A stretch of 64,000 nucleotides of DNA from a virus: IMG/VR virus record IMGVR_UViG_3300032240_001333, positions 17,265 to 81,264 of that record. One strand, given 5' to 3'. The notes beneath the pieces were generated by a model. That model saw only the letters and a program-made list of their open reading frames with translations. It made no database searches and was not told the DNA's origin. Below are positions 1,740 to 58,802 of this stretch, one piece after another (position 1 is the stretch's first letter; the number at the start of each line of letters is the position of its first letter). Made by a program: the position numbers and the translations under genes.

Positions 1740-3528
1740 TTTTGCAGATATAATAGATATTTTAGATAATGAAGAATTTGAAGAGCGCCCAGTAGATTTA
1801 AGAACATTCGTTACCAGTCCAGAATATCTTGGGCTACCACCACTTTCAGAGCATCAATATACATTAATTGAAAAATCATCTCAAATTTATAAAGAGTCTA
1901 CTTTAATTAAGTTATTTGGTGAAGACGAAGGCAGACGTATATTTAAACAAACTGCTAATGAAGTTATCGCACAATTAGGTAAAGGTTCTGGAAAAGATTA
2001 TTCATCTACTATTGCTGTAGCATATATTGTATATTTGCTGTTATGTCTTAAGGATCCTGCATTATATTATGGAAAACCACCAGGAGATGCAATTGATATT
2101 TTAAATATTGCTATTAACGCACAGCAGGCAAATAATGTTTTTTTTAAAGGGTTTAAAACACGCATTGAAAAGTCACCATGGTTTGTTGGAAAATATACAG
2201 ATAAAGCTTCCGAAATGAAGTTTGATAAATCTATTACAGTTCATTCTGGTCACTCTGAACGTGAAGCATGGGAAGGCTATAACGTTATTATTGTTATTCT
2301 TGACGAAATATCTGGTTTCGCTACAGAAAATACAACTGGTCATGATCAAGCAAAAACTGCTGACGCTATATATGATATGTATCGTGCATCGGTAGATTCT
2401 CGTTTCCCAGATTTTGGTAAAGTTATTTTGCTTTCATTTCCTCGTTTTAAAAATGATCCAATTCAAAAGTTTTATGATTCAGTAATTGCAGAAAAAGAAA
2501 CAATTACTAGAAGCCATAGATTTAAAATGGATTTAGATTTACCTGATGGAACGGAAGGTAATGAGTTTGATATTGAATGGGAAGAAGATCATATAATATC
2601 TTATTCTATTCCTAAAGTATATGCATTAAGAAGGCCAACATGGGAGATCAATCCCACAAGAAGCATTGAAGATTTTAAAGTAGCTTTTTATAAAAACTCT
2701 ATGGATGCTTTAGGTAGATTTGCTTGCATGCCACCAGAAGCCATAGATGCATTTTTTAAATCAAGAGAAAAAATTGAAATAGCTTTTAATAATACAGCAT
2801 TAGCAATTGATCAATTTGGAAGATTTGAAAACTGGTTTGCCCCAGACCCAGATAAAGATTATTTTATACATGTAGACTTAGCACAAAAACATGACCATTG
2901 TGCAGTATCTTTAGCACATGTACAAAAATGGGTTAATGTGAAGTTAACGGATACATACTCACAACCAGCACCAATTGTAGAAGTTGATGCAGTAAGATAT
3001 TGGACACCAACAGCAGATAAATCTGTAGATTTTACTGAGGTTAAAGATTATATATTATCTTTAAGAACAAAAGGATTTAAAATAAAAGTTTGTACATTTG
3101 ACCGATGGAACTCTCATGACATGATGCAACAACTAAAACAATATGGCATCAATACAGAGATTCTGTCGGTCGCTAAAAAACATTATGATGATATGGCAAT
3201 GGTCGTTTTAGAAGAAAGATTAAAAGGTCCACATATTCCATTATTAATAGATGAACTTTTACAATTAAAAATTATGAGAGATAGGGTTGACCACCCAAGA
3301 AAAGGTTCTAAAGACTTAGCAGATGCTGTTTGTGGATCAATATATAATGCTATTAGTAAAACAAGATTTGAGTCAAATAATGAAATTAAAATTCATACAT
3401 ACGAATCTATGAGTTTTGATAATGACTTTAACCCAACACAAGAAGAAGAGTTTGTACAAAATATGATCAGGGCACCAAGGATGCCAGATCATTTAGCAGA
3501 ATCCTTAGAAAGAATGACAACGTTATGA
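1729..3528 (+). CDS. terL: Terminase large subunit
   Basis: Walker A GKGSGKD, Walker B VILDE, nuclease HVDLA...DHP...KDLADA. Confidence 0.93.
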   Translation: MSFDFADIIDILDNEEFEERPVDLRTFVTSPEYLGLPPLSEHQYTLIEKSSQIYKESTLIKLFGEDEGRRIFKQTANEVIAQLGKGSGKDYSSTIAVAYIVYLLLCLKDPALYYGKPPGDAIDILNIAINAQQANNVFFKGFKTRIEKSPWFVGKYTDKASEMKFDKSITVHSGHSEREAWEGYNVIIVILDEISGFATENTTGHDQAKTADAIYDMYRASVDSRFPDFGKVILLSFPRFKNDPIQKFYDSVIAEKETITRSHRFKMDLDLPDGTEGNEFDIEWEEDHIISYSIPKVYALRRPTWEINPTRSIEDFKVAFYKNSMDALGRFACMPPEAIDAFFKSREKIEIAFNNTALAIDQFGRFENWFAPDPDKDYFIHVDLAQKHDHCAVSLAHVQKWVNVKLTDTYSQPAPIVEVDAVRYWTPTADKSVDFTEVKDYILSLRTKGFKIKVCTFDRWNSHDMMQQLKQYGINTEILSVAKKHYDDMAMVVLEERLKGPHIPLLIDELLQLKIMRDRVDHPRKGSKDLADAVCGSIYNAISKTRFESNNEIKIHTYESMSFDNDFNPTQEEEFVQNMIRAPRMPDHLAESLERMTTL

Positions 3529-16990: not shown

Positions 16991-17614
16991 TTGATAAAAA
17001 ATATAAATAATAAAATTTATATAATTGAAAATTATATTTCTGAAGGTACTTCTAAATTTATAACAGACGTATATAATGAATCACTATATGATTCTCCAAG
17101 CTATCAAATTAAAGGCGGACCATCTTTAAAACCAGATGACGGATATACTTTTCAATGTGGTAAAACAATTGACCAATATAATGGAAATTTAAATCACGAT
17201 GTAGCAGTAGATATATTAACTATGATTTGTACATCAATGACTAAAACAATATCAGATTTTGCTGATAAGCAAATGGATATTAAAACTATGTTTTATGGAC
17301 TAATGCTTCCAGGATCTAAAAATGAACTGCATTCAGATAATTACTTAGAAATAAACAATGAGGATAGTCTTAGACAAAATTCAAAAGATGATTGGTCTGG
17401 ATTACTGTATTTAAATGATTCATATGAGGGTGGACTTTTAGAATTTCCTGAAGAGGAGTTTTCAATAAAACCTAAAATTGGTACATTTATATTTTTTAAA
17501 GGGGATCATAATTTACCCCATAGAGTTTCAGAAGTAACAGGCGGATCTAGAAATGTAATAATATCCTTTTTTTGGCCAAAAGAATACCGTGGTTTAGACA
17601 CTATTTTAGGCTAG
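16991..17614 (+). CDS. 2OG-Fe(II) oxygenase
   Basis: HSD, LYLNDSYEGG, HRV, R. Confidence 0.88.
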   Translation: MIKNINNKIYIIENYISEGTSKFITDVYNESLYDSPSYQIKGGPSLKPDDGYTFQCGKTIDQYNGNLNHDVAVDILTMICTSMTKTISDFADKQMDIKTMFYGLMLPGSKNELHSDNYLEINNEDSLRQNSKDDWSGLLYLNDSYEGGLLEFPEEEFSIKPKIGTFIFFKGDHNLPHRVSEVTGGSRNVIISFFWPKEYRGLDTILG

Positions 17615-24029: not shown

Positions 24030-24461
24030 TTATTCCTCTTCTAATATAACAGGTTCCGCCTTGAAACCTGGTTCTTGCGTTCCATATTCAGTTGTATTAT
24101 CTGACTCCTCGTCAGAATCTTCATCCAGCCATCCGTCGTCTTCGAGGGCGGCAAGGAAATCATTATCAATCATCCAATCAAGAATTGCCTCATCAACAGC
24201 CTCCGCACCATATTCAAGGGTAAAATCACTTGGCGGGTTGGCCCAGAGTTTATCCCAGATAACATCTAGAGTAGTATTAGCAGTTATTACAAAGTCATTG
24301 CCAAAATCATCTTGAGAATAATTATTAAACTTATCTTTAATTACATCCCATACCCATAGCCATACTAATGACATTGGAACATCCATGCCATTTAAAGTAT
24401 CGACAATTTGGTCCAATTGCATTCTAATCTTGACACCACGGTCATATTGTGCATTATCCAC
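24030..24461 (-). CDS. Highly acidic hypothetical protein
   Basis: Asp/Glu-rich 143-aa ORF. Confidence 0.7.
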   Translation of the reverse strand: MDNAQYDRGVKIRMQLDQIVDTLNGMDVPMSLVWLWVWDVIKDKFNNYSQDDFGNDFVITANTTLDVIWDKLWANPPSDFTLEYGAEAVDEAILDWMIDNDFLAALEDDGWLDEDSDEESDNTTEYGTQEPGFKAEPVILEEE

Positions 24462-24916
24462 GCTGTTTTGCCCTTTCGTTGATAGCGAATGCTAAATTAT
24501 ACGTCATAACATACAAATCTGTCAATGCGTCCATACGTCCTTCAAAATAAAATTTATCTGCAATATTATCAGAATCACCTATTTCCGATAGTTTTGTTTC
24601 ACATTCATACATCCAATTTTTTAATTCACCATGCATGATGTTAGTACCTGTTTCTCCCAGGTCAATCAGCTTTTGAAGATGTGGGCTTAATTCATCAGAC
24701 ATTATCATTTGCTACCTCCAATAAATGTTCTATGGCAAATATCTGTCCTTGTATATAATGCCAATCAATTGAATCATCTTTTAAAGATGTCTTTTCAATT
24801 AGTTCTTTATCTTGTTCAAGACTTATTAAATGAAGTTTCATATATTCGATTAAATTAGTCATGGATATCTTTCTGTCCAGTTTCTCTATTATGAATTGCA
24901 TATACTCCGCAATCAC
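24454..24916 (-). CDS. Two small coupled hypothetical ORFs
   Basis: 24454-24708 and 24695-about 24861; similar YxxG(R/Q)xxA motif. Confidence 0.6.
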
Positions 24917-25130
24917 AATTAAAGTATCCTGGTGTGTCGGTGCATTCCCATTTATGACTATGCATGATCGAAATACCCCTCAGCCCATAGTCCTTGCAAG
25001 AAACTGTTTGCCATTTCTAAATCGCTTCTAAGTTCTGTCTTATCCATTAAATTGGACGGGGTCCTAAGATAAAAAAGTTTTGCGTCATGTATAGCATTAA
25101 TCATTCTATTTAAATCATTTTCAGTATAAC

Positions 25131-25340
25131 CTAGCATAAGAAGTACTCATCCCCTTCTTTATATCCATAATATTCATTATAAGATTGTCTTACATTATCA
25201 GGAGCAAATTCCATAAATTTAAATTCAGCATATTCTTCGCCTTCATCTAAATTAGAATTATTCCAGTCTTCAAACAATTGCTCTTTTATATCATGCTGGA
25301 TAGAATCTATTAGCATTTCATTCATATCATCTGTAAACAT
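25131..25340 (-). CDS. Acidic hypothetical early protein
   Basis: AACGAAAGG RBS and TGTCAG promoter upstream. Confidence 0.75.
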   Translation of the reverse strand: MFTDDMNEMLIDSIQHDIKEQLFEDWNNSNLDEGEEYAEFKFMEFAPDNVRQSYNEYYGYKEGDEYFLC

Positions 25341-25496
25341 TTTTCCCCTTTCGTTATGGCTTAATTATATATCAGACCACTGACATTTGTAAATAGAATA
25401 TTGGTGTGTTTCACACCACATTGTCCAAAGATTGAGATTTCCAGGAAATTTACTTGACATCCGTAAAACAGATATGATACCCTCACCAGCTGCGGG

Positions 25497-25631
25497 AAAT
25501 AAGAAACCCCCCAGCCGAGACTACTGGGGGATTAAGAGAGTGGCTGCTAGGACCTCAACGAAAGGAAAAGCCTGCTTTACTTAGCAACTAGATAAGTTGC
25601 ACCACTCATATGAATAGGCACCCTGGGCCTA
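25497..25631 (-). ncRNA. Candidate small RNA antisense to the shared early-gene RBS
   Basis: TGCTATAAT promoter (25637-25645), UUUUCCUUUCGUUG segment, CCCCCAG/CTGGGGG terminator. Confidence 0.65.
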
Positions 25632-25647
25632 ATCAAATTATAGCATA

Positions 25648-26052
25648 TTAGACGAGCAGTCTCTCCAATGCATACTTCTCACAGAATGATGTGAGATCCA
25701 TGGTAAAGATTGCTTCATTCTTCATACCTAAAACTTTATTCTCTAAGTTGCGATGATCATCTTGCTCATGCAATGAGAACGTTTGGTCCTTCCAATTAAT
25801 AACAGCGATCTTGTGCTCATTGTCACCAATTGAATTTACCTGCAGACCCCAGCCTGTTTCCATGTTCCATTGGTCGCCGATCAAATGACTAATAGCAATA
25901 CGTGTTGCATATGATTCGTCATTCCATCGAGGACGTGCTGCAATAACAGCATCCGCCAATTTACCTAACATGTTATATCCAGCCCAGTGTCCGTATAAGC
26001 AGATTGTATCTCCTGCTCCATCAACGAATACGTAGTTTGCTCTATCTCCCAT
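25648..26052 (-). CDS. Hypothetical phage protein
   Basis: MGDRA...LYGHWAG...YATRI ORF. Confidence 0.75.
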   Translation of the reverse strand: MGDRANYVFVDGAGDTICLYGHWAGYNMLGKLADAVIAARPRWNDESYATRIAISHLIGDQWNMETGWGLQVNSIGDNEHKIAVINWKDQTFSLHEQDDHRNLENKVLGMKNEAIFTMDLTSFCEKYALERLLV

Positions 26053-26243
26053 TATATTTCCGCCTTTTCTAGTTGAGGTGTTTCTTCCGTTTTGTTTAAT
26101 TCTATCATTTCATAGGCCCATTTGTCTAGAGCCTCTGAATTACTATTTCGGTGATGTCCGCAAAATGCCAGCTCACCTGATGTGCTACGGGCTAACCATT
26201 TAGCCTGAGCTGAGCATGAATCACATTTGATCCATTCGCTCAT
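26052..26243 (-). CDS. Small actinobacterial-type Zn-binding protein
   Basis: CDxCxAQA...GELxFCGHH. Confidence 0.7.
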   Translation of the reverse strand: MSEWIKCDSCSAQAKWLARSTSGELAFCGHHRNSNSEALDKWAYEMIELNKTEETPQLEKAEI

Positions 26244-26378
26244 ATCTTGTTTTCCTCTATCATATCTGATAGGCGGTCAAGGAGCCAAGAGTCGATATCC
26301 GCTAAGTCTATCTCTCTTAACTTCTCAATGATCTCCTCACGAGCAAATTTATACCCGTCATCAAAACCATCTTTATAC

Positions 26379-26612
26379 TCAGACATTTTCTCCCCTAACA
26401 TATGCTAATTCATTCTCAGCATAATCTTTTTCATTTAATACTGTAAGATTGTGAGTTTGAATTAACTTGCTCACCTTCTCAATATTACCTGTTCCGATCT
26501 CGAATGTCAAGGACTTACGGTCATGAGAATCAGGATCAAGCCCCATGACCTCCGCATCCCATGAGGCTCTATGGAAAGCAACATTACTATTTGCTTTTAA
26601 TTTATAAAACAT
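26379..26612 (-). CDS. Hypothetical protein
   Basis: Coupled ORF. Confidence 0.6.
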   Translation of the reverse strand: MFYKLKANSNVAFHRASWDAEVMGLDPDSHDRKSLTFEIGTGNIEKVSKLIQTHNLTVLNEKDYAENELAYVRGENV

Positions 26613-27064
26613 TAGTTCCAATCCACATCTGTGTCTTCAATTGACCAATCATTTACTTCAACATCGCTTCCATATGATGTTAAAGTAAGTTCATCTCCAA
26701 GTTTGTAATGAGCGTCAAAGTTATCAACCTCATCAAGTGGAACCTGAACAGTTACTTCAAAATTAATAGTTCCAGTTACTGTAACTGTCTTTGATAATTC
26801 AAATCCAAACAGTTCTGCTATTTGTTGAAGCGCTTCTTCCTTTGTATAATTAGGATTATATAATTCAACTAGAAGTTCTTCTAACTCATTAACCTTTGAT
26901 TTAAGGCTATGATAGTTATCATTAGCACGACGACCTTGATCTAAGGCCCATTCTAAATCAACTACCTTATCGGTAATATATTCAGGTGCTTCAGGTGCTG
27001 CGTAGGTTCCTGCAATCTTCTTGTAAGTCACAAGTAGATTAGGATTGTATGTTTCTATTGACAT
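26612..27064 (-). CDS. Hypothetical protein
   Basis: AACGAAAGGAAA RBS; promoter embedded in the upstream CDS. Confidence 0.75.
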   Translation of the reverse strand: MSIETYNPNLLVTYKKIAGTYAAPEAPEYITDKVVDLEWALDQGRRANDNYHSLKSKVNELEELLVELYNPNYTKEEALQQIAELFGFELSKTVTVTGTINFEVTVQVPLDEVDNFDAHYKLGDELTLTSYGSDVEVNDWSIEDTDVDWN

Positions 27065-27822
27065 TAGTTTCCTTTCGTTGTAGTAGTGGTTAAGTATACA
27101 TTATGGGTCTGACATTCCGCCATAGCATCTTCATCCTGCCAAGAGCCTTGATTACATTCTGAGCAGAATTCTCCGCATCCGTCTTCACAATAATCTATTG
27201 TGTTAAAAGATTGGCAGGCATAACATCTGTTTTCATATTCTAAGTTTTCATTAACTTCACCACGAACAATCTCGTATTCACCACCCCAACCAGTCTCTTC
27301 TTCAAATTCAAGGGTTAATAGAGAGTTTGGAACAAGATTGCTAAGTTTAGTTAATATAGTAACGGCAGGTGACCAAGCAGTATTATATTTATAGATAACC
27401 CAGTTGTCTTCACCCTCTGATGTATATTCAAGTAATTCAGTATCAGGATATTCATCTTTGTCTGCTACGGCAACATCCCATTTTGTTCCCCAGTTAGTTG
27501 TATTCCAGTTATACCAATCTTTCTGAGTTTTAGCATGCTCCATTTCTTTATCAAACCAATCAGGTTGATTTGTAGAAATTCCAAGTCGTGCAGGTTGTTG
27601 AACATATTCTTGCATTGTAATACCATCTTGTAATGGAGAATGTATATTCCAAAATGCAAAGACAGGATTAGAGTAAGTAGATTCAGTTACTTCCATTTTA
27701 TTAGTTTCCATGTTCCAACTATCGTGCCATACCATAAATGGCTCGTTAAGTTTATCTTTGATAAAATCTATCTCAGACTTTGGTCCTTGGATTGTTAATG
27801 TGTTATACACCCAGTTAGGCAT
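27064..27822 (-). CDS. DUF1281/YubB-like protein
   Basis: MPNW.YN, WYNWN..NWGTKWD, TAWSP. Confidence 0.78.
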   Translation of the reverse strand: MPNWVYNTLTIQGPKSEIDFIKDKLNEPFMVWHDSWNMETNKMEVTESTYSNPVFAFWNIHSPLQDGITMQEYVQQPARLGISTNQPDWFDKEMEHAKTQKDWYNWNTTNWGTKWDVAVADKDEYPDTELLEYTSEGEDNWVIYKYNTAWSPAVTILTKLSNLVPNSLLTLEFEEETGWGGEYEIVRGEVNENLEYENRCYACQSFNTIDYCEDGCGEFCSECNQGSWQDEDAMAECQTHNVYLTTTTTKGN

Positions 27823-27946
27823 ATTATTCCTTTCGTTGATTAGCGCAATTGTATCAGAGTCGACTGACATTATCAAGGATTTCCAGGAATTTTATTGATG
27901 TTCTCATAAAAGCGAAAAAAGGCCCTTAGCTATTGGGGGCAGCTTG

Positions 27947-28020
27947 CGATCCCAACGGGACTTGAACCCGTAGCCTTTACCGTGACAGGGTAACGATCTA
28001 ACCAATTGATCTATGGGACC
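27947..28020 (-). tRNA. tRNA-Asp(GTC)
   Basis: Reverse-strand cloverleaf GGTCCCA...TTACC-CTGTCAC-GGTAA...GGTTCAAGTCC...TGGGATCG. Confidence 0.92.
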
Positions 28021-28051
28021 TAGATGTGGGGCCCTTTCGGGCCCCATTTAT

Positions 28052-29059
28052 TTATACTAGTTGCAGATTATTTTGTACAACTTTTAACAAGCGATTTTTT
28101 TCTGCGTTAATTACAGGATTGAAACCACTTGCAGATGCTAAAAGAGTTTCAGCATTTCCACGGCGATGCCAATCTAAACGCTCAGTTAAAGCGTTAAATG
28201 CTCCCCATGCATTACCAGCGATCATGTGATTAAATTCGCCAGTGTAGATATCATTAATGAGATCAACTTTCGTTTCCCATTTTTTAATTGCGCCCTTAGT
28301 ATCTTTTGTAGGCTTAGGGTACGCAGCCAAAATAATATCGTTAAATTGTTGAGCGGTGATTTCTTTTTGAATCATCTGCTTAGCCATGATATCGAATTTA
28401 TCCATGTATGAATTCGCAAGACCTAAAGCCTCACGAGCCACACGCACACGACCTTCAGCAGATTGTGTATGACGGATTTTGAAAGATTGCTTAACGCCAT
28501 CTTTCTTTTTGATATTGCCCATCGCAAGATTTAGCGTGTTAGCGCATACAACACGAACGGGTGTTATAGATGCTTGAATAGCAATTGAGCCATCATGTGA
28601 TGTATTAATAAGCAGATAAGTTTTAACAACATCTGCCACGCCACTAGGATCAAGAACGGTTTCACGCTCTAATGCTAATGAGCCGAATACAACACGACCG
28701 CCACGAATTGAGCCAGCAGTCTCCCAACGTCCACCGCCATCAAGAATATTATCGCCGAATGCGAATAATTCTTCATTTTGCAATGGTACATAACGCTCAC
28801 CGACAATTCCTAAAACATCGGTTTGTGTTTTGTCCGTAGGATTAGTACGCACAACATATTGATAGTTTTTATCGCTTGTTAATGTAGATGGAATTTCTAA
28901 TTCCTCTAAGCGAACATTCCAACCATTAAGGTTAGCGGTTTCTAGCATTTCGCTAGTTGTTTTTTCTTCTGTGAACACGGTACCTAAACCATGCCACGCA
29001 GGTTCACGAAATGATGCAAAAGAAGTTTTGCCATTTTGTGATTCTAGTTCATGAGCCAT
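28052..29059 (-). CDS. DUF932 family phage/plasmid protein
   Basis: MAHE..., PAWHGLG, ETAGSIRGG, SHDGS, TPVRVVCANTL, IRHT. Confidence 0.9.
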   Translation of the reverse strand: MAHELESQNGKTSFASFREPAWHGLGTVFTEEKTTSEMLETANLNGWNVRLEELEIPSTLTSDKNYQYVVRTNPTDKTQTDVLGIVGERYVPLQNEELFAFGDNILDGGGRWETAGSIRGGRVVFGSLALERETVLDPSGVADVVKTYLLINTSHDGSIAIQASITPVRVVCANTLNLAMGNIKKKDGVKQSFKIRHTQSAEGRVRVAREALGLANSYMDKFDIMAKQMIQKEITAQQFNDIILAAYPKPTKDTKGAIKKWETKVDLINDIYTGEFNHMIAGNAWGAFNALTERLDWHRRGNAETLLASASGFNPVINAEKNRLLKVVQNNLQLV

Positions 29060-29196
29060 TTATTTTCCTTTCGTTTAATGTAGCGTTATTCTAGCATACA
29101 TGACTGACATTTGGCAATATCCTATCCGACACGCCAGGGATTTTAAAAGCTTGACTTAAAGCAGAAAATGCCCCCACAGTATCTGGGGGCTTTTAA

Positions 29197-29415
29197 TTAA
29201 GAAATGACTAACGATTTAAAATCGGTTGGAAAAAACATTGCCAGAATCTTTTTCTTTTCAACATTGTCATATACATATGCTTTGACATTGCCCTGGAACT
29301 TATTTAGATTTTTTCTAACAACTTTATTTAGCGCTTCACGATTTAATATATCATTAAAATGTAAAGTTAAATCATGAGCTTTGTTAGCATCATAGATTTC
29401 TACACGATACCGCAT
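29197..29415 (-). CDS. Hypothetical protein
   Basis: AAAGGA RBS. Confidence 0.65.
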   Translation of the reverse strand: MRYRVEIYDANKAHDLTLHFNDILNREALNKVVRKNLNKFQGNVKAYVYDNVEKKKILAMFFPTDFKSLVIS

Positions 29416-29487
29416 TTGTTTCCTTTTGTAGTAGGGAGAACTATTTTAACATAGGGGGCTAGATTTTGTCTAGCCCCCATTTGTTTA

Positions 29488-29910
29488 TTATAGATATTGA
29501 GCGATAGCGTTGTAAGTAGAAGTTGAAACTACTTCCTCATCTGTCATTTTCAGAATACGGATAGCGTTTTCAATTTCATCTTTTGTAGCCTTGTAAGTAT
29601 GAACATGGAAGGTTTCAAAATCACGCTCAGGTTGCTTAGGAAAATCCTTCTCGTCAATTTTTAAGTCAAAATCAACATTGAGTTGGTTATTCCATGAACG
29701 ATAATTTGTGCGGACATTTTCCGCTTTTGAGATATTATCAAGAGCAAACTTAACAATATCTTTATTCCACTTAGCCAAAGTCTTTTGATACTTTGCCTCG
29801 TTCTCGTCTTGTTTCTTATAGTTAGTTTCAATTTCTGCTAACTTAGTTTCTAAAGCCTTGATAACTTTAGGTGTAGCGATTTTAACGCTAATTGCTTTTT
29901 GTCTTGACAT
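29488..29910 (-). CDS. Hypothetical coiled-coil protein
   Basis: Conserved promoter and RBS upstream. Confidence 0.8.
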   Translation of the reverse strand: MSRQKAISVKIATPKVIKALETKLAEIETNYKKQDENEAKYQKTLAKWNKDIVKFALDNISKAENVRTNYRSWNNQLNVDFDLKIDEKDFPKQPERDFETFHVHTYKATKDEIENAIRILKMTDEEVVSTSTYNAIAQYL

Positions 29911-29977
29911 GTATTTCCTTTCGTTAGGTTGGGTTTATTATAGCGGACACCACCGACAAGCGGTGTCCGCATATTAC

Positions 29978-30121
29978 TTAGTTTAGAACTACTGAAGTCC
30001 AGCGTTCTTTGCCATTTACATCTAGCAAGATACGAGCCACTCCGCTTGGGTGATTATCAACGGCTTTGATAATTCCAGTAATACCACTTGTAGTGGTTGT
30101 GTATAGTTGTCCGATTTCCAT
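29978..30121 (-). CDS. Small hypothetical protein
   Basis: Start reassigned using the RBS motif. Confidence 0.7.
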   Translation of the reverse strand: MEIGQLYTTTTSGITGIIKAVDNHPSGVARILLDVNGKERWTSVVLN

Positions 30122-30172
30122 TTTTGTTTCCTTTCGTTTATGGGTTGTTATTATAGCACCTGCCACCGACAA

Positions 30173-30442
30173 TTAGTAATCGGTTTCAGGTAGCCACGCT
30201 TCTAGGTGGTGAGCCTCGATAATTGCTAAGGCAGGAGCCTTATCTCTGCCCCTATATGACACGCCTTGAGGCATATCTATCAGGCGATCATAGTCCTCAT
30301 CATAGTACGCATCTATGGCATCAATACATGGTTGTACCATTGATAGCGGAACGGGTGGATAGTGATTACCTTGTAAGTGATAACCAATAGCCATTTCTAA
30401 GTCTAAGTTTTCTGCTAAGTCTATTGCTGTATTTAATCCCAT
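30173..30442 (-). CDS. Hypothetical phage protein
   Basis: HLQGNHYPPVP...EAHHLEAW. Confidence 0.75.
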   Translation of the reverse strand: MGLNTAIDLAENLDLEMAIGYHLQGNHYPPVPLSMVQPCIDAIDAYYDEDYDRLIDMPQGVSYRGRDKAPALAIIEAHHLEAWLPETDY

Positions 30443-30718
30443 TTATTCATTCTCCTCTAATATAGTTTCGGATAAGTTTTCTATTTCGTTAATACTATCC
30501 GTCATCTCTTTCATCTCGGTTTCGGATAGTAATACTTTAGTAGTTAGGTCTGCTGTTTTACTAGCAAGACTAGCAGAATAAAGATAAATTAACTTTGCGA
30601 AAGTTTTATCATCTATTTCATTTCTGCGTTCCATTAAGTCCCCTGCTAAGGCTGTAATATCATCATTAAATACTGCTTCCTTAGTTGCTTCTGATATTGC
30701 TATGGCTGTTGCTAACAT
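30443..30718 (-). CDS. Hypothetical protein
   Basis: Conserved promoter and RBS. Confidence 0.75.
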   Translation of the reverse strand: MLATAIAISEATKEAVFNDDITALAGDLMERRNEIDDKTFAKLIYLYSASLASKTADLTTKVLLSETEMKEMTDSINEIENLSETILEENE

Positions 30719-30770
30719 ATTTTCCTTTCGTTGGTGATGGGCTGATTATACACCAGCCCACCGACATTTA

Positions 30771-31031
30771 CTAAGCCAGTACTATAAGAGCCTGCGTAGC
30801 AAACTCATTAGCAATATCTAACTTTGCTTGGATTTCATCTCTAGTCATATCGGCAGGGTTACCGACAAACTCAGTAATTGCGCCTTGATTGTAAGTTGCA
30901 AACCTACCAGCAGGCAAGTTTTCTACTTTTGGATAAAACTCACCTTTTGGATCTAATAAAGAGTTAAACTTAACTCCATTAACTTCGAATGGATAAACCA
31001 CCCAATTAGTTGTGTCTAGCATTGTTTTCAT
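30771..31031 (-). CDS. Hypothetical protein
   Basis: Conserved promoter and RBS. Confidence 0.75.
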   Translation of the reverse strand: MKTMLDTTNWVVYPFEVNGVKFNSLLDPKGEFYPKVENLPAGRFATYNQGAITEFVGNPADMTRDEIQAKLDIANEFATQALIVLA

Positions 31032-31301
31032 TTTATTTCCTTTCGTTTAAGTAGTGGAATTGTAGCAGATCTAACTGACATTTTGTTGCGACACGCCGTC
31101 AGCTCGTAAAAATTTTCAGGGTGTTTTATATCACATTCTTAACGACACGCCCGACCCCGCAGTATTTGCGGGCAAAGCCCCCTTTTGTCAAGGGGGACAC
31201 GCTGGTTATTTAATAACACTCTCCACATAATGGATAGTAATATTCGCCATCATCAGTAATAAACTGAGTGGTATCTTGATTGCAAGATGAACATTTATTC
31301 A

Positions 31302-31511
31302 TTATAAATCCCCCATTTCTGCGTCAGCCATGCGTGTATTCATATGATCTGCATCAATATCACGCCAGCCAAAGTAAGCCATTTCTGACATATCATAACA
31401 TTCAGGGCAGACATAATCGTCGCCAAAGATTTCATATTCCTCAATAGTTTCGAAAGTCTGAGTAGCACCACAGATTTCGTACATTAAGCAAGCAACTGTT
31501 AGATTTTCCAT
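31302..31511 (-). CDS. Zn-ribbon acidic protein
   Basis: C....CG...CPEC; conserved promoter and RBS. Confidence 0.72.
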   Translation of the reverse strand: MENLTVACLMYEICGATQTFETIEEYEIFGDDYVCPECYDMSEMAYFGWRDIDADHMNTRMADAEMGDL

Positions 31512-31761
31512 TTTAGTTCACCTTTCGTTAAGTAATGGAATACTAACACATCACACTGACATTTCCAAATCGACACGCCGAAATTTTCAGGGCATTTTTA
31601 TCATGTGTCTTAAATCACAAAACGCCCCCACAGCTTTTGCGGGCTTTTTCTAATCTGTCAAGTCGACACGCCGTTTATGTTTTAATTTTCTTGTGTATTT
31701 TTTTTTATTGCGAACAGGTTGGGCCGCATTGCTGCGGCGTAATTCCTGAATGCGTTTTACT

Positions 31762-32162
31762 TTATTTAGAAGAATATTTTGGCACATGATAACCGCTTGC
31801 TTCATGAAATTTAACAACATCAAAACGCTCATTATCTTTTGCAAACATTTCTGCAAAATCGTGAACAGTTTTAGAAAAAACAGCGGGATGAATTTTATCG
31901 CTGATATATTTTAAAATTTCAGCGGTTGCGATATAGTCTTTACGGGTCATCATTTTGCGGACACCAATCCAATCAAGTTAAAATTTTTAGTATACATTTT
32001 ACCATTAGGCATAGTTAAATTATATCTTGCGTTTTCTACGGCAAAGCCATGATCTTTACATCTAGCAAAAGCCTCAAACGCTTGAAGAGCATCAGAAAAT
32101 TCATGGGTAAATTCTAATTTCCCATCATAGTAAGTAAATAATTTATACATTAGATCACCCAC
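31762..32162 (-). CDS. Two small coupled ORFs (31762-31953, 31950-about 32150)
   Basis: MTRKDY..IA...F..DNERFD..KF motif in the first. Confidence 0.7.
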
Positions 32163-32334
32163 TCATCTAAAACACAATCACAACTTTCAACATCATAATT
32201 TTTTTCATCGCCCCAAAATACAAATCCTGCGCCACCGCATTCTTCACATTCAATTGCGATTATTTCTTTTATATTTCCCATTTAGTTTTCCTTTCGTAGT
32301 TTGTTAATAGAATTATAGCGGATACCGCTGACAC

Positions 32335-32550
32335 CTAGTAGGTGTCAGGGTAAACATCTTCGGGTTTTCCAATCCCGATTACACGATATTTATTACGGAT
32401 CATGCCCGTATCAATTTCGATTAAATAAGCATCAATATATCTGCCAAAAAAAGCAGAATGTTTTTCAGCAGAAACAATTTTTCCGCTGATAGTATCGGAT
32501 GAATAAGTCCTACCGACTAGCAAGTCGGTGTGAGAGTAGATATTAGCCAT
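32335..32550 (-). CDS. Hypothetical protein
   Basis: Conserved promoter and RBS. Confidence 0.72.
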   Translation of the reverse strand: MANIYSHTDLLVGRTYSSDTISGKIVSAEKHSAFFGRYIDAYLIEIDTGMIRNKYRVIGIGKPEDVYPDTY

Positions 32551-32858
32551 AGTTAGTTTTCCTTTCGTTTATGGTGTAATTTTAACATAACCCACTGACA
32601 ATCAGTGGGTTGGCGTTTCCGCCATGATTAGTTTTAATAAACCAATTCGTTGCGATTTGGTTAAATTTAATTTCGCAACAGTTTCGGATTTTATTCCGCC
32701 ATTATTATATTCGAACAAAAGTTCGTTATAGATTTCGCTAAATTCTTTCATTTAGTTTTCCTTTCGTTTAATAGTTTTATTCTAACACCTACCACTGACA
32801 TTTTGCCTATTACTGACCAGTATTTGAGACAGTATTCGTGTGATCATAATCACACGAG

Positions 32859-32933
32859 TTATCCACGACACGCCCGAAGTTTTCCACAGATTTTCAGGGG
32901 TTTTCCACATCTGTGCATAAACCCTGTGGATAA
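32859..32933. promoter_or_regulatory. Cluster of five DnaA-box-like 9-mers
   Basis: TTATCCACG, TTTTCCACA x2, TGTGCATAA, TGTGGATAA. Confidence 0.75.
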
Positions 32934-33705
32934 CGCCCACAAAAAGCTGCGGGCCAATGTCGCCATTGTCAAGGCGACACGCCGTCTATTTCTTGTGAGT
33001 TTCCTCACATACGCATTTGGTATATGCGCCAGCGTTTAACCTGCCACATTTAGGGCAGGTATAGAAACCAGCAGGATTAGTCATTTAACCCACCGCTCTT
33101 TACATCGTAGTAGATAGCGTAGACTAGGGCAGATACTACACCTAGCAACGCTAATTGGATGGCGGTGGTGATTAGTCTATTTAGTGTCATTACTTACGAC
33201 CTCTCCATATTTTAATTCCAGCAATTACTACAACAGATACGATAATTAGTTTCCAATCTAGTGCGACATAGAACCAATCGCTATCTACGCAGAAACCATA
33301 TGAGTTTAATTCAATAGTCATTTATTACTCCGTCCAGTCTAAGGTTAATTCTTGCTCTGCTAATTCATCAAGGCTAATTATATCGGTATCAAAATCGCTA
33401 ACGATATCTTCATCGCCCTCTTGCTTGGCGATAGCCTCTCTCTCGTCCCAATGGCGGTATGCGTCTGCGATATCCGCTTGGATAGTGTCCCATTTAGTCA
33501 TCATATTAGAAACCCCAGCAATCTGAGCAGATAACTACATCGCTCTCATCGTAGAATATAGAGGACATCTCTACATCGCACACCTTACAATTTAAGGTGA
33601 TTAGTGTGTCGTTCATTTTCTTACCTTCTTTCGTTTTTGTTATGGTGAAACCTTATCATACCCCACCGACAAAGCGCAAGCCTTGCCGATGTGATGTTGC
33701 TCACA

Positions 33706-33930
33706 TTAGTAGGCACCATAGGTGCCATCCTTTAGTGATTGGATAGTAGTCAATACATGGTCAATAGCCATCATGACTATCTCTTTATCAGAGCGGTCTT
33801 GATAAGCCCAATGATCCTTATAGTAGACATATGCTTGCTCATATGTCCAGCAATAAGTATCGTGATAATACTTAAGCGTAGGAGATAGCGTTTCATACGC
33901 CTCATTTATTTCTTTTATCATAGTTATCAT
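33706..33930 (-). CDS. Hypothetical protein, first gene of the minus-strand block
   Basis: AACGAAAGGA RBS. Confidence 0.7.
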   Translation of the reverse strand: MITMIKEINEAYETLSPTLKYYHDTYCWTYEQAYVYYKDHWAYQDRSDKEIVMMAIDHVLTTIQSLKDGTYGAY

Positions 33931-33963
33931 ATTTATATCCTTTCGTTGATATATATTGAGCGG

Positions 33964-34005
33964 TTATTTGCTAGGCTCACCTTTCGGATTATTTGCTAGG
34001 CTCAC
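33964..34005. repeat. 17-bp direct repeat x2
   Basis: TTATTTGCTAGGCTCAC at 33964 and 33989. Confidence 0.95.
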
Positions 34006-57993: not shown

Positions 57994-58802
57994 GTAAGAA
58001 TTTAAACTTTATTACTTTATATCCAAAAATACATATGTATAAGAATGTATTTAAAGATGTAGACTCTTTTTTAGAAAATGCAAAAAAATGTGAAATTTGG
58101 GAACAATGGTATACATTTGGAGATATGCTTGCTCTTCAAGAGGCACCAATTAAATTTAATAATTTTCCAACAAAAGAAGAATATGTTAATGCAAGATCAT
58201 GGCAGGCAGAAAATGAAAATGATAAATTAAGAAATGAACTTACTGAAGAAGTAGGAGAAATTTTTTATGATGTAACAAACCATTTCCTATCTACATACCC
58301 AGAAATTAAATTTTCTAATTGGGTAAAAAATCCAGCATCAATTAATAAATATACTAATAATGCAGGTATATCAGAAAATTATGCAATGAATTACCATACA
58401 GACTTTGTTGAAGCTGAAAAAGATTGGCCAGGGTCTAAATTTTCAATAACTACAACTTTTTATTTAAATGACACATATGATAATGGTGAAATATGTTTTA
58501 AAATTAATGATGAATATATTTCTTATAAACCACAAAAGGGTGATGTCATAGTATTTCCATCAAGCCCACCATACTACCATGCAGTAAGAAAAGCTAGTGG
58601 TTCTGATAGGTACATGATTAGATCTTTTTGGCAATTTGACTACGATGGTTCTTCAGAATGGATTGAGGGTCAAAATAAATATGGAAAAGATAAATGGGAT
58701 GAAATGGAAAAAGAAAGAATTAAAGGTATTAGATTTAATTATCAATTTGATGGAGAAAGTTTTCATGAATTTTTTGGTAAAGATAATGGAATTTATAGAT
58801 GA
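57990..58802 (+). CDS. 2OG-Fe(II) oxygenase
   Basis: HTD, YLNDTYDNGE, YYHAV, RY; ATGA overlap start. Confidence 0.88.
   Translation: MSKNLNFITLYPKIHMYKNVFKDVDSFLENAKKCEIWEQWYTFGDMLALQEAPIKFNNFPTKEEYVNARSWQAENENDKLRNELTEEVGEIFYDVTNHFLSTYPEIKFSNWVKNPASINKYTNNAGISENYAMNYHTDFVEAEKDWPGSKFSITTTFYLNDTYDNGEICFKINDEYISYKPQKGDVIVFPSSPPYYHAVRKASGSDRYMIRSFWQFDYDGSSEWIEGQNKYGKDKWDEMEKERIKGIRFNYQFDGESFHEFFGKDNGIYR

Follow-up and report, generated by a model that had tools for sequence, protein, structure and literature searches.

A structured phage RNA family with a loop complementary to the shared leader box of early genes: a candidate anti-leader RNA

We describe here a predicted small RNA from a 64,000-nt stretch of viral DNA, positions 17,265 to 81,264 of the IMG/VR virus record IMGVR_UViG_3300032240_001333 (hereafter the window; the whole record spans 81 kb and is about 75% complete). 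The RNA, of about 130 nt, is encoded on the minus strand directly downstream of the early gene p134, and it belongs to a family of structured RNAs that is new to Rfam. The family is characterized by a hairpin loop with the core CUUUCGUU, which is complementary to a box covering the Shine-Dalgarno sequence in the leaders of about 14 early genes. We consider it likely that the RNA pairs with these leaders, and give a probability of roughly 0.6 to the more specific reading, namely that it acts in trans as an anti-leader small RNA (sRNA) with net repression of early translation; its transcription, its action in trans and the direction of its effect are inferred.

Early leader boxes and the RNA loop that complements them

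The early region of the window (24400-34000, minus strand) is made up of units with a recurrent layout: a TGTCRGTGG box, a spacer of 8-10 nt, a TAnnnT element, a further 10-17 nt (22 in one unit) and the leader box AACGAAAGG. In the window this box is matched exactly at 14 sites, of which 13 are minus-strand (24472-33947) and one is plus-strand (25557-25565), against a chance expectation of 0.25; none of 100 shuffles reached 14 matches. Each minus-strand box lies 5-10 nt 5' of a start codon, with open reading frames (ORFs) of 43-335 aa behind them, and the 13 exact boxes and one variant are all on this strand and all within 24.4-34 kb. The extended ribosome-binding site (RBS) that a preliminary description of the window had ascribed to about 14 minus-strand early genes is thus borne out. 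The box is restricted to the promoter-proximal gene of each unit, operon-internal genes using other Shine-Dalgarno sequences, and since its distance to the -10 element of its own promoter varies (10-17 nt, once 22), it tracks the start codon and not the promoter. The predicted targets so defined are at 24472-24480, 25347-25355 (the first unit downstream of the RNA), 27071-27079 (at the head of the operon whose last elements are p134 and the RNA), 27829-27837, 29067-29075, 29917-29925, 30130-30138, 30724-30732 (within a full 14-nt loop complement at 30720-30733), 31039-31047, 31521-31529, 32561-32569, 32760-32768 and 33939-33947, with the variant CUACGAAAGGAAAA at 32286-32299.

The plus-strand match is part of an inverted copy of the box: the 14-mer CAACGAAAGGAAAA occurs exactly at two sites, 25556-25569 (+) and 30720-30733 (-). 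As had been noted earlier, no start codon follows the inverted copy within 14 nt, and no ORF lies behind it. Across the whole record the 8-mer AACGAAAG is found 15 times in leader orientation and twice inverted, one of the latter being the RNA site and the other lying within an ordinary RBS. A translated plus-strand ORF using the inverted box, which would have spoken against an RNA gene, can be ruled out: a start codon after the box is absent from the window and from 78 of 91 distinct cores in relatives, and none is conserved on this strand.

With p134 as a handle, 66 related loci were collected, in which the identity of the encoded protein ranges from 98 to 41%. The intergenic DNA downstream of p134 is 68-94% identical across these loci, and UUCCUUUCGUU is kept in nearly all of them despite differing surroundings; in all, the family comprises at least 175 related contigs from many lakes. 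Its members share a three-helix junction consisting of P1, the P2 hairpin, an unpaired UAAGUAAA, the short loop-bearing P3, and AGCAGCC closing P1. In the window, this core is matched at 25535-25610 (minus strand, as are all elements of the RNA) by the covariance model R1, at 52.2 bits and an E-value of 4.5e-9. The 5' strand of P1, GAGUGGU (25601-25607), pairs with GCCACUC (25538-25544), which is preceded by an invariant AGCA; four of its seven pairs have changed on both sides and 96% of the alignment cells are paired. P2 is the hairpin GCAACU-UAUCU-AGUUGC (25584-25600; 100% of cells paired), which takes a longer, nested form in relatives, with one position showing as pair types GU (21), UA (10), CG (6), AU (5) and UG (4). 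The junction segment J2/3, UAAGUAAA (25576-25583), is nearly invariant in all members. P3 (25546-25575; 98.7% paired, three pairs changed on both sides) is composed of GC/GC, a one-base bulge and AGG/CCU, and holds a 19-nt loop (25552-25570). Within this loop lies the anti-leader seed UUUUCCUUUCGUUG (25556-25569), identified by motif matches and comparison with relatives, the core of which is invariant in the family.

Model R1 was trained only on the 29 members with a long P2, the short-P2 type seen in the window being left out; in the MAFFT alignment of these 29, 91.7% of the cells pair, with a covariation score of 0.425 as opposed to 0.145 in shuffles. It nevertheless finds exactly one match per locus in 64 of 67 sources. 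Across 46 distinct relatives, 95.8% of the pair cells are standard (76.8% in shuffles), and the covariation score is 0.450, whereas shuffles score 0.125 and slid partners no more than 0.085. RNAalifold independently recovers the same three helices, with the P3 loop open. The stems contain 64 G.U pairs against 11 A.C mismatches, indicating that the RNA is made from the minus strand of the window, and promoter and terminator have the same orientation. This comparative fold, along with the promoter and terminator signals of relatives, upholds the earlier claim of a non-coding minus-strand RNA unit. It also revises it in one respect: the GAGUGG/CCACUC stem that had been thought to enclose the loop exists, but it is the junction-closing P1, and the loop is held directly by P3.

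A search of 25350-25700 against the 4227 families of Rfam 15, with E-values up to 10 (cmscan), gave only a weak match to NsiR1 on the terminator; over the whole window at gathering scores Rfam matched tRNAs only, and no description of the family was found in the literature searched. We hold it to be almost certain that this is a functional structured RNA. Two further structural proposals were set aside. Pairing of J2/3 with UUUACUUA of one group of loops (B, below) is perfect in some members, and the changes in others break it and do not compensate. A resemblance of GGUGCGGCU with AGCAGCC to the 16S rRNA 3' domain or the signal recognition particle RNA is confined to one group, involves covarying partners unlike those of rRNA, and finds no support in Rfam.

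In a scan of IMG/VR which specified scaffold positions only and left the loop free, at least 119 contigs were found, of which 115 are real members by model or inspection; among the scan matches listed, CUUUCGUU is present in the P3 loop of 111 of these 115. The P3 stems and the loop flanks vary among members while CUUUCGUU stays. The loops measure 19-25 nt and have four main types of flanks: A, UUUUCCUUUCGUUGAGG, as in the window; B, UUUACUUAAUUCCUUUCGUU; C, UUUUACUUUCGUUGG; and D, UUUAUUUCUUUCGUUGG. In one locus (L061), the scaffold has been replaced by a plain hairpin, GGGGAGG-uuuccuuucguu-CUCCCUCCCC, which has the same loop at the same place, the first ~95 nt past the p134 stop codon (about 3403-3495), and is followed by a terminator hairpin. 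Conversely, four members supported by the model at 36-48 bits bear the unrelated P3 loops CCUCGAAAA (L120:2987-3066), CUGGGGGUGUU (L085:2741-2825, with the same RNA in L159) and AUUCUAAUCGUGCA (L146:8762-8835). These have no p134 upstream but other genes, and just 0-1 leader box in 10-15 kb, whereas the CUUUCGUU-loop loci have 5.4-6.7 such boxes per 10 kb on the strand of the RNA (911 boxes on that strand versus 6 on the opposite one in all such loci). No shared box complementary to the loops of L120, L159 and L146 was found within their 10-15 kb loci. The predicted complementarity of the loop to early leaders is the most conserved feature of the family.

The motif was originally placed mostly in a hairpin loop. 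This agrees with the unpaired consensus loop; in the single-sequence fold, however, CCUU of the motif pairs with GAGG in the loop, leaving UCGUU open with an unpaired probability of 0.8-1.0. It takes 0.7 kcal/mol to open CCUUUCGUU and 4.9 kcal/mol to open the whole 14-mer. Invariance, an open consensus loop and a low opening energy together are as expected of a conserved single-stranded seed. Its duplexes with the 12 called leaders range from -17.5 to -22.1 kcal/mol, the strongest being with the first unit downstream of the RNA, compared to -9.9 +/- 3.3 kcal/mol for 116 other start regions; the seed is thus complementary to several separately encoded initiation regions. The pairing of 12-13 nt that had been predicted extends over 12-14 nt, and the duplex covers the GAAAGG Shine-Dalgarno core.

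Covariation between loop and leader, which had been put forward as a check, is seen at one flanking position and not in the core, which does not vary in either partner, so that the classic test fails within the clade. In types A and B, whose loops place a C across from the second G of the box, 93-95% of the leaders have that G; in types C and D, with an A or U there, the share of G drops to 67-72% and A makes up 26-31%. In a cross-duplex matrix, the loops of all four groups favour leaders of their own group, with an interaction of -0.4 to -0.85 kcal/mol. We regard this co-shift of flanking positions as suggestive only.

The RNA gene and its neighbourhood

The whole RNA is predicted to extend over 25497-25630 (-), from a purine 7-8 nt past the -10 element to the end of the terminator U-tract, and folds at -46.5 kcal/mol (z -2.7). 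Its putative extended -10 promoter, TGCTATAAT (25637-25645), lacks the TGTCRG box of the early promoters, as first described; hence, transcription of the RNA may be controlled differently from that of its predicted targets. A 5' hairpin of the UAGGCC...GGCCUA type (25615-25631) follows, and at the other end lies an intrinsic terminator (25495-25533), whose CCCCCAG/CUGGGGG stem of 11 bp (25533-25505) gives way to UUUCUUAUUU; this terminator, too, had been correctly recognised. Of 112 distinct members, 84 have a TGnTAnnnT upstream, at a distance from the core of either 4-9 nt or 25-37 nt. The latter class, to which the window belongs, includes the 5' hairpin, and a downstream hairpin with a T-run is present in 94 of the 112. 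The 28 members that lack TGnTAnnnT, mostly of type C, begin directly after the p134 stop codon, and would be derived from its 3' untranslated region (3'-UTR).

At the level of sequence, an own promoter, an intrinsic terminator and a lack of coding capacity fit a separate gene; as to the last, core lengths show no preference for any of the three residues modulo 3. The organization is unlike that of a cis-regulatory 5' leader or riboswitch, in that the terminator stem and a separate early promoter (25393-25364) stand before the next gene. Between the two lies a conserved block, TTTACGGATGTCAAGTAAATTTCCTGGAAAT (25440-25495, minus strand), with the palindrome ATTTCC-T-GGAAAT. Several further early promoters are preceded by similar TTCCTGGAAAT or CCCTGAAAAT boxes (as upstream of 27835, 31045 and 31527), and the block is one copy of this repeated pre-promoter element and not a part of the RNA.

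The gene upstream, p134 (25648-26052, minus strand), codes for a protein of 134 aa and is the last of a five-gene early operon. A homologue on the same strand precedes the RNA in 175 of 175 loci with CUUUCGUU in the RNA loop. The protein corresponds to PHROG 31860 and has no match to a Pfam family; its structure model (pLDDT 87) has no match in the PDB by Foldseek at E <= 0.001, with a best VIA-align Z of 3.4. Its relatives are confined to phages of actinobacteria, namely those of Streptomyces, those of Nocardia, and the lake phage DSL-LC01. The host of the present phage is therefore probably a freshwater actinobacterium. A DNA similarity search of the region against cultured phage records returned no match.

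Two other features of the early region contain CGAAAGG. A hairpin, GGGGCC-CGAAAG-GGCCCC (28028-28047, minus strand), abuts a tRNA-Asp gene (27946-28020) on its 5' side, and is not a leader. At 33950-34000 (minus strand), a CGAAAGG with no start codon behind it is flanked by two direct copies of TGAGCCTAGCAAATAA; the site lies a short way upstream of the block's first leader.

A predicted mode of action and its alternatives

We propose that the RNA would be made from its own extended -10 promoter and ended by the intrinsic terminator; in some relatives it would instead be freed from the 3' end of the early operon that contains p134. The three-helix scaffold would display the loop, whose core CUUUCGUU would pair with the AACGAAAG(G) box in about 14 short early 5' leaders, the pairing spanning 12-14 nt (UUUUCCUUUCGUUG) in this phage. 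Because the duplex covers the Shine-Dalgarno sequence, the accumulating RNA should prevent 30S binding to all early messages together, and may also set off decay of these messages. The outcome would be a delayed negative feedback or an early-to-late off-switch.

Three alternatives accept a functional RNA but assign it a different role. The best placed of these, though itself unlikely, is that the RNA has some other main job, such as protein binding via the junction or acting as a decoy for the 16S 3' tail, with leader complementarity as a side effect. The junction elements UAAGUAAA, GC and AGCAGCC are as invariant as the loop and are not explained by antisense pairing, the same scaffold also carries unrelated loops, and UCCUUUC occurs in the usual bacterial 16S 3' tail. 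Yet the invariant part of the loop is CUUUCGUU, whose CGUU extension fits the phage-specific AACG and not the usual 16S tail; the CC resembling the anti-Shine-Dalgarno sequence is gone in groups C and D; and L061 has dropped the scaffold and kept the loop.

A slightly weaker case can be made for a cis-acting 3'-UTR element of the p134 operon, the loop of which pairs only with the operon's own leader (27071-27079), so that the message forms a ring, which would stabilise it or limit its own translation; the 13 other matches would then be by-products of all units sharing one leader. This would account for the constant position of the RNA after p134 (175/175 loci) and for the promoterless members that start right after the stop codon (28/112), and the operon does carry a leader box with a duplex of -20.6 kcal/mol. 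It is less easily squared with the dedicated extended -10 promoter and protective 5' hairpin of three quarters of the members, the window included, which point to a free RNA able to meet every leader. Nor does anything limit the pairing to one among 14 near-identical boxes.

Still a little less probable is that the RNA does pair with the leaders but to positive or neutral effect, either shielding their 5' ends from a host nuclease or toxin aimed at the box, or guiding processing. The pairing evidence is the same for this possibility as for repression, and with boxes only ~3-10 nt from the inferred 5' ends of very short leaders, 5'-end-dependent decay could be affected. What argues for repression is that the duplex lies on the GAAAGG Shine-Dalgarno core, where it would block initiation by an established sRNA mechanism, and that the leaders are A/C-rich and unstructured, and so offer no inhibitory fold to open. 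Finally, a chance inverted copy or a functionless relic of a rearranged promoter-leader cassette, conceivable if one had one window alone, is most improbable given that an exact 14-mer on the other strand has a chance of ~4e-4 (a base-composition estimate) and that the element is kept in at least 175 contigs, alongside a flanking protein down to 41% identity and with compensatory base changes.

Repression in trans by an anti-leader RNA is our preferred reading, but several points weigh against it. A single RNA would need to titrate some 14 abundant leaders if it did not act catalytically via a nuclease. Simple antisense pairing does not account for the strong conservation of the unpaired junction (UAAGUAAA, AGCA), a hint of another partner or role. 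The co-shift of loop and leader amounts to about one independent phylogenetic split (A and B versus C and D), and the loops of groups C and D have lost their pairing to the second G of the Shine-Dalgarno sequence. Beyond the family, there are phages with comparable leaders from which the RNA, or its loop, is missing. The metagenome-assembled lake phage DSL-LC01 (129 kb; PMC10611076) is one of these: over its whole genome (OQ999401.1) there is neither a match to model R1 nor a CCTTTCGT. Likewise, in cluster K mycobacteriophages, Ekdilam, Shandong1 and ShedlockHolmes keep 13-16 forward copies of a comparable box despite change or loss of the matching loop.

DSL-LC01 has a p134 homologue of 42% identity, and is the sole genome with such a homologue that was checked for the RNA and found to lack it. 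It contains 22 early units between 23900 and 43500. All of them have a promoter and a leader with the consensus AACGA-CGAAAGG-ACAA, a box longer than that of the window; the promoter cassette is TTCTAAAG-nn-GTTATAAT-n-GAATCA, and we thus see an analogous regulon with different flanks. Such a long conserved leader in a phage without the RNA means that the RNA is not needed to explain why the box extends past the Shine-Dalgarno core. The earlier suggestion that it does explain this is weakened accordingly, both by DSL-LC01 and by the three cluster K phages. More generally, as leader boxes persist in phages without the RNA, the box serves some purpose independent of the RNA, which is layered on top of it. 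A candidate second anti-leader RNA in DSL-LC01, the intergenic ACUUUCGUUG at ~4279, was discarded: it has no IMG/VR homologue, and 46 exact 15-mer matches are unrelated. Pairing of the leader with an unusual host 16S tail ending in ...CCUUUCGU might be another cause of the extension; a scan of GTDB for GATCACCTCCTTTCGT returned, among the matches listed, mostly Alphaproteobacteria and a few scattered actinobacteria, which does not bear on the host of this phage.

The cluster K box, the start-associated sequence (SAS), overlaps the Shine-Dalgarno sequence, lies 3-7 bp ahead of the start codons of non-structural genes and is almost always in one orientation. The K1 phages also have one inverted copy that was left unexplained, and the authors did not decide between an RNA and a protein as the binding partner of the SAS (Pope et al. 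2011, PMC3203893). It is the nearest described counterpart of the target box reported here, though its sequence, GGGATAGGAGCCC, and its promoters differ from those of this phage, and no partner RNA has been described for it. In the K1 phage Adephagia (JF704105), there are 16 forward copies and one inverted (58682-58694), the latter located in the 432-bp gap between genes 92 and 93. We find that the inverted copy forms the loop CCUCCUAUCCC of a long hairpin (58660-58716; -47.9 kcal/mol, z -4.9), in a region conserved in 142 cluster K records. Across Adephagia, Curiosium, Peanam and Amelie, the loop is invariant and the stem changes are compensatory. In Ekdilam the loop differs at two positions, and in Shandong1 and ShedlockHolmes it is unrelated; no covariation of loop and SAS is seen in cluster K. 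The architecture recurs in a culturable system, and there too the box outlives the hairpin. The Adephagia hairpin is a concrete candidate for what recognises the cluster K SAS, a question open since 2011, and both this phage and its host Mycobacterium smegmatis are in routine laboratory use.

Comparison with known regulators

The c4 antisense RNA of phages P1 and P7 is, as summarised in a later account (Citron and Schuster 1990, cited in PMC8201110; Rfam C4), likewise a phage-encoded structured non-coding RNA, exposed segments of which pair with the ribosome-binding region of a phage mRNA and repress it. According to the same account, it can come from the same transcript as its target, which is a further point of likeness. 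A relationship between the two by sequence or structure was not found: the Rfam C4 model, which covers P1/P7 c4 and P4 CI, is unmatched, and no Rfam family matches the core at an E-value of 10. The c4 RNA acts in lysogenic immunity, and its single target is the icd-ant operon of the immunity region. The RNA described here would instead be directed at about 14 separate early units of an apparently lytic programme.

The 6C sRNA (B11) of actinobacteria is chaperone-independent and pairs with several mRNAs via C-rich loops (PMC6486639). Thus, in what is probably the same host phylum, pyrimidine-rich hairpin loops serve as seeds for purine-rich regions of several mRNAs. However, 6C is host-encoded, consists of two simple hairpins with C-runs and has scattered host targets, whereas the present RNA is phage-encoded, folds as a three-helix junction with one U/C-rich seed loop, and has predicted targets with a dedicated leader box; the Rfam 6C model gives no match to it.

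In phage T4, the translational repressor RegA and the endoribonuclease RegB are made early and act on many early messages via a feature of the ribosome-binding site. The joint shutdown of early messages is the point of likeness; both T4 effectors are proteins, and the one proposed here is an RNA. Neither RegA nor RegB is known to rely on a dedicated shared leader box.

No report of a phage RNA controlling translation of a whole early class was found in the literature searched. If our reading is true, one small RNA sets the translation of an entire early gene class in a lytic phage, in a family that belongs to phages of abundant freshwater actinobacteria which are not yet culturable. Beyond this, we tentatively raise the possibility, to which we give somewhat less than even odds, that anti-leader RNAs form a general layer in the timing of phage genes that has not been described before, in which a class-wide leader box is matched by one structured RNA displaying its complement. 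The scaffold would be modular and could be re-aimed by a swap of the P3 loop, as perhaps in L120, L085 and L146, and the architecture would have originated independently in mycobacteriophages, in the form of the anti-SAS hairpin of Adephagia. The kind of regulator is itself known, both from antisense RNAs to ribosome-binding sites like P1 c4 and from loop-seed sRNAs like 6C; what is new is a single phage RNA with a predicted complementarity directed at a dedicated tag on an entire temporal gene class.

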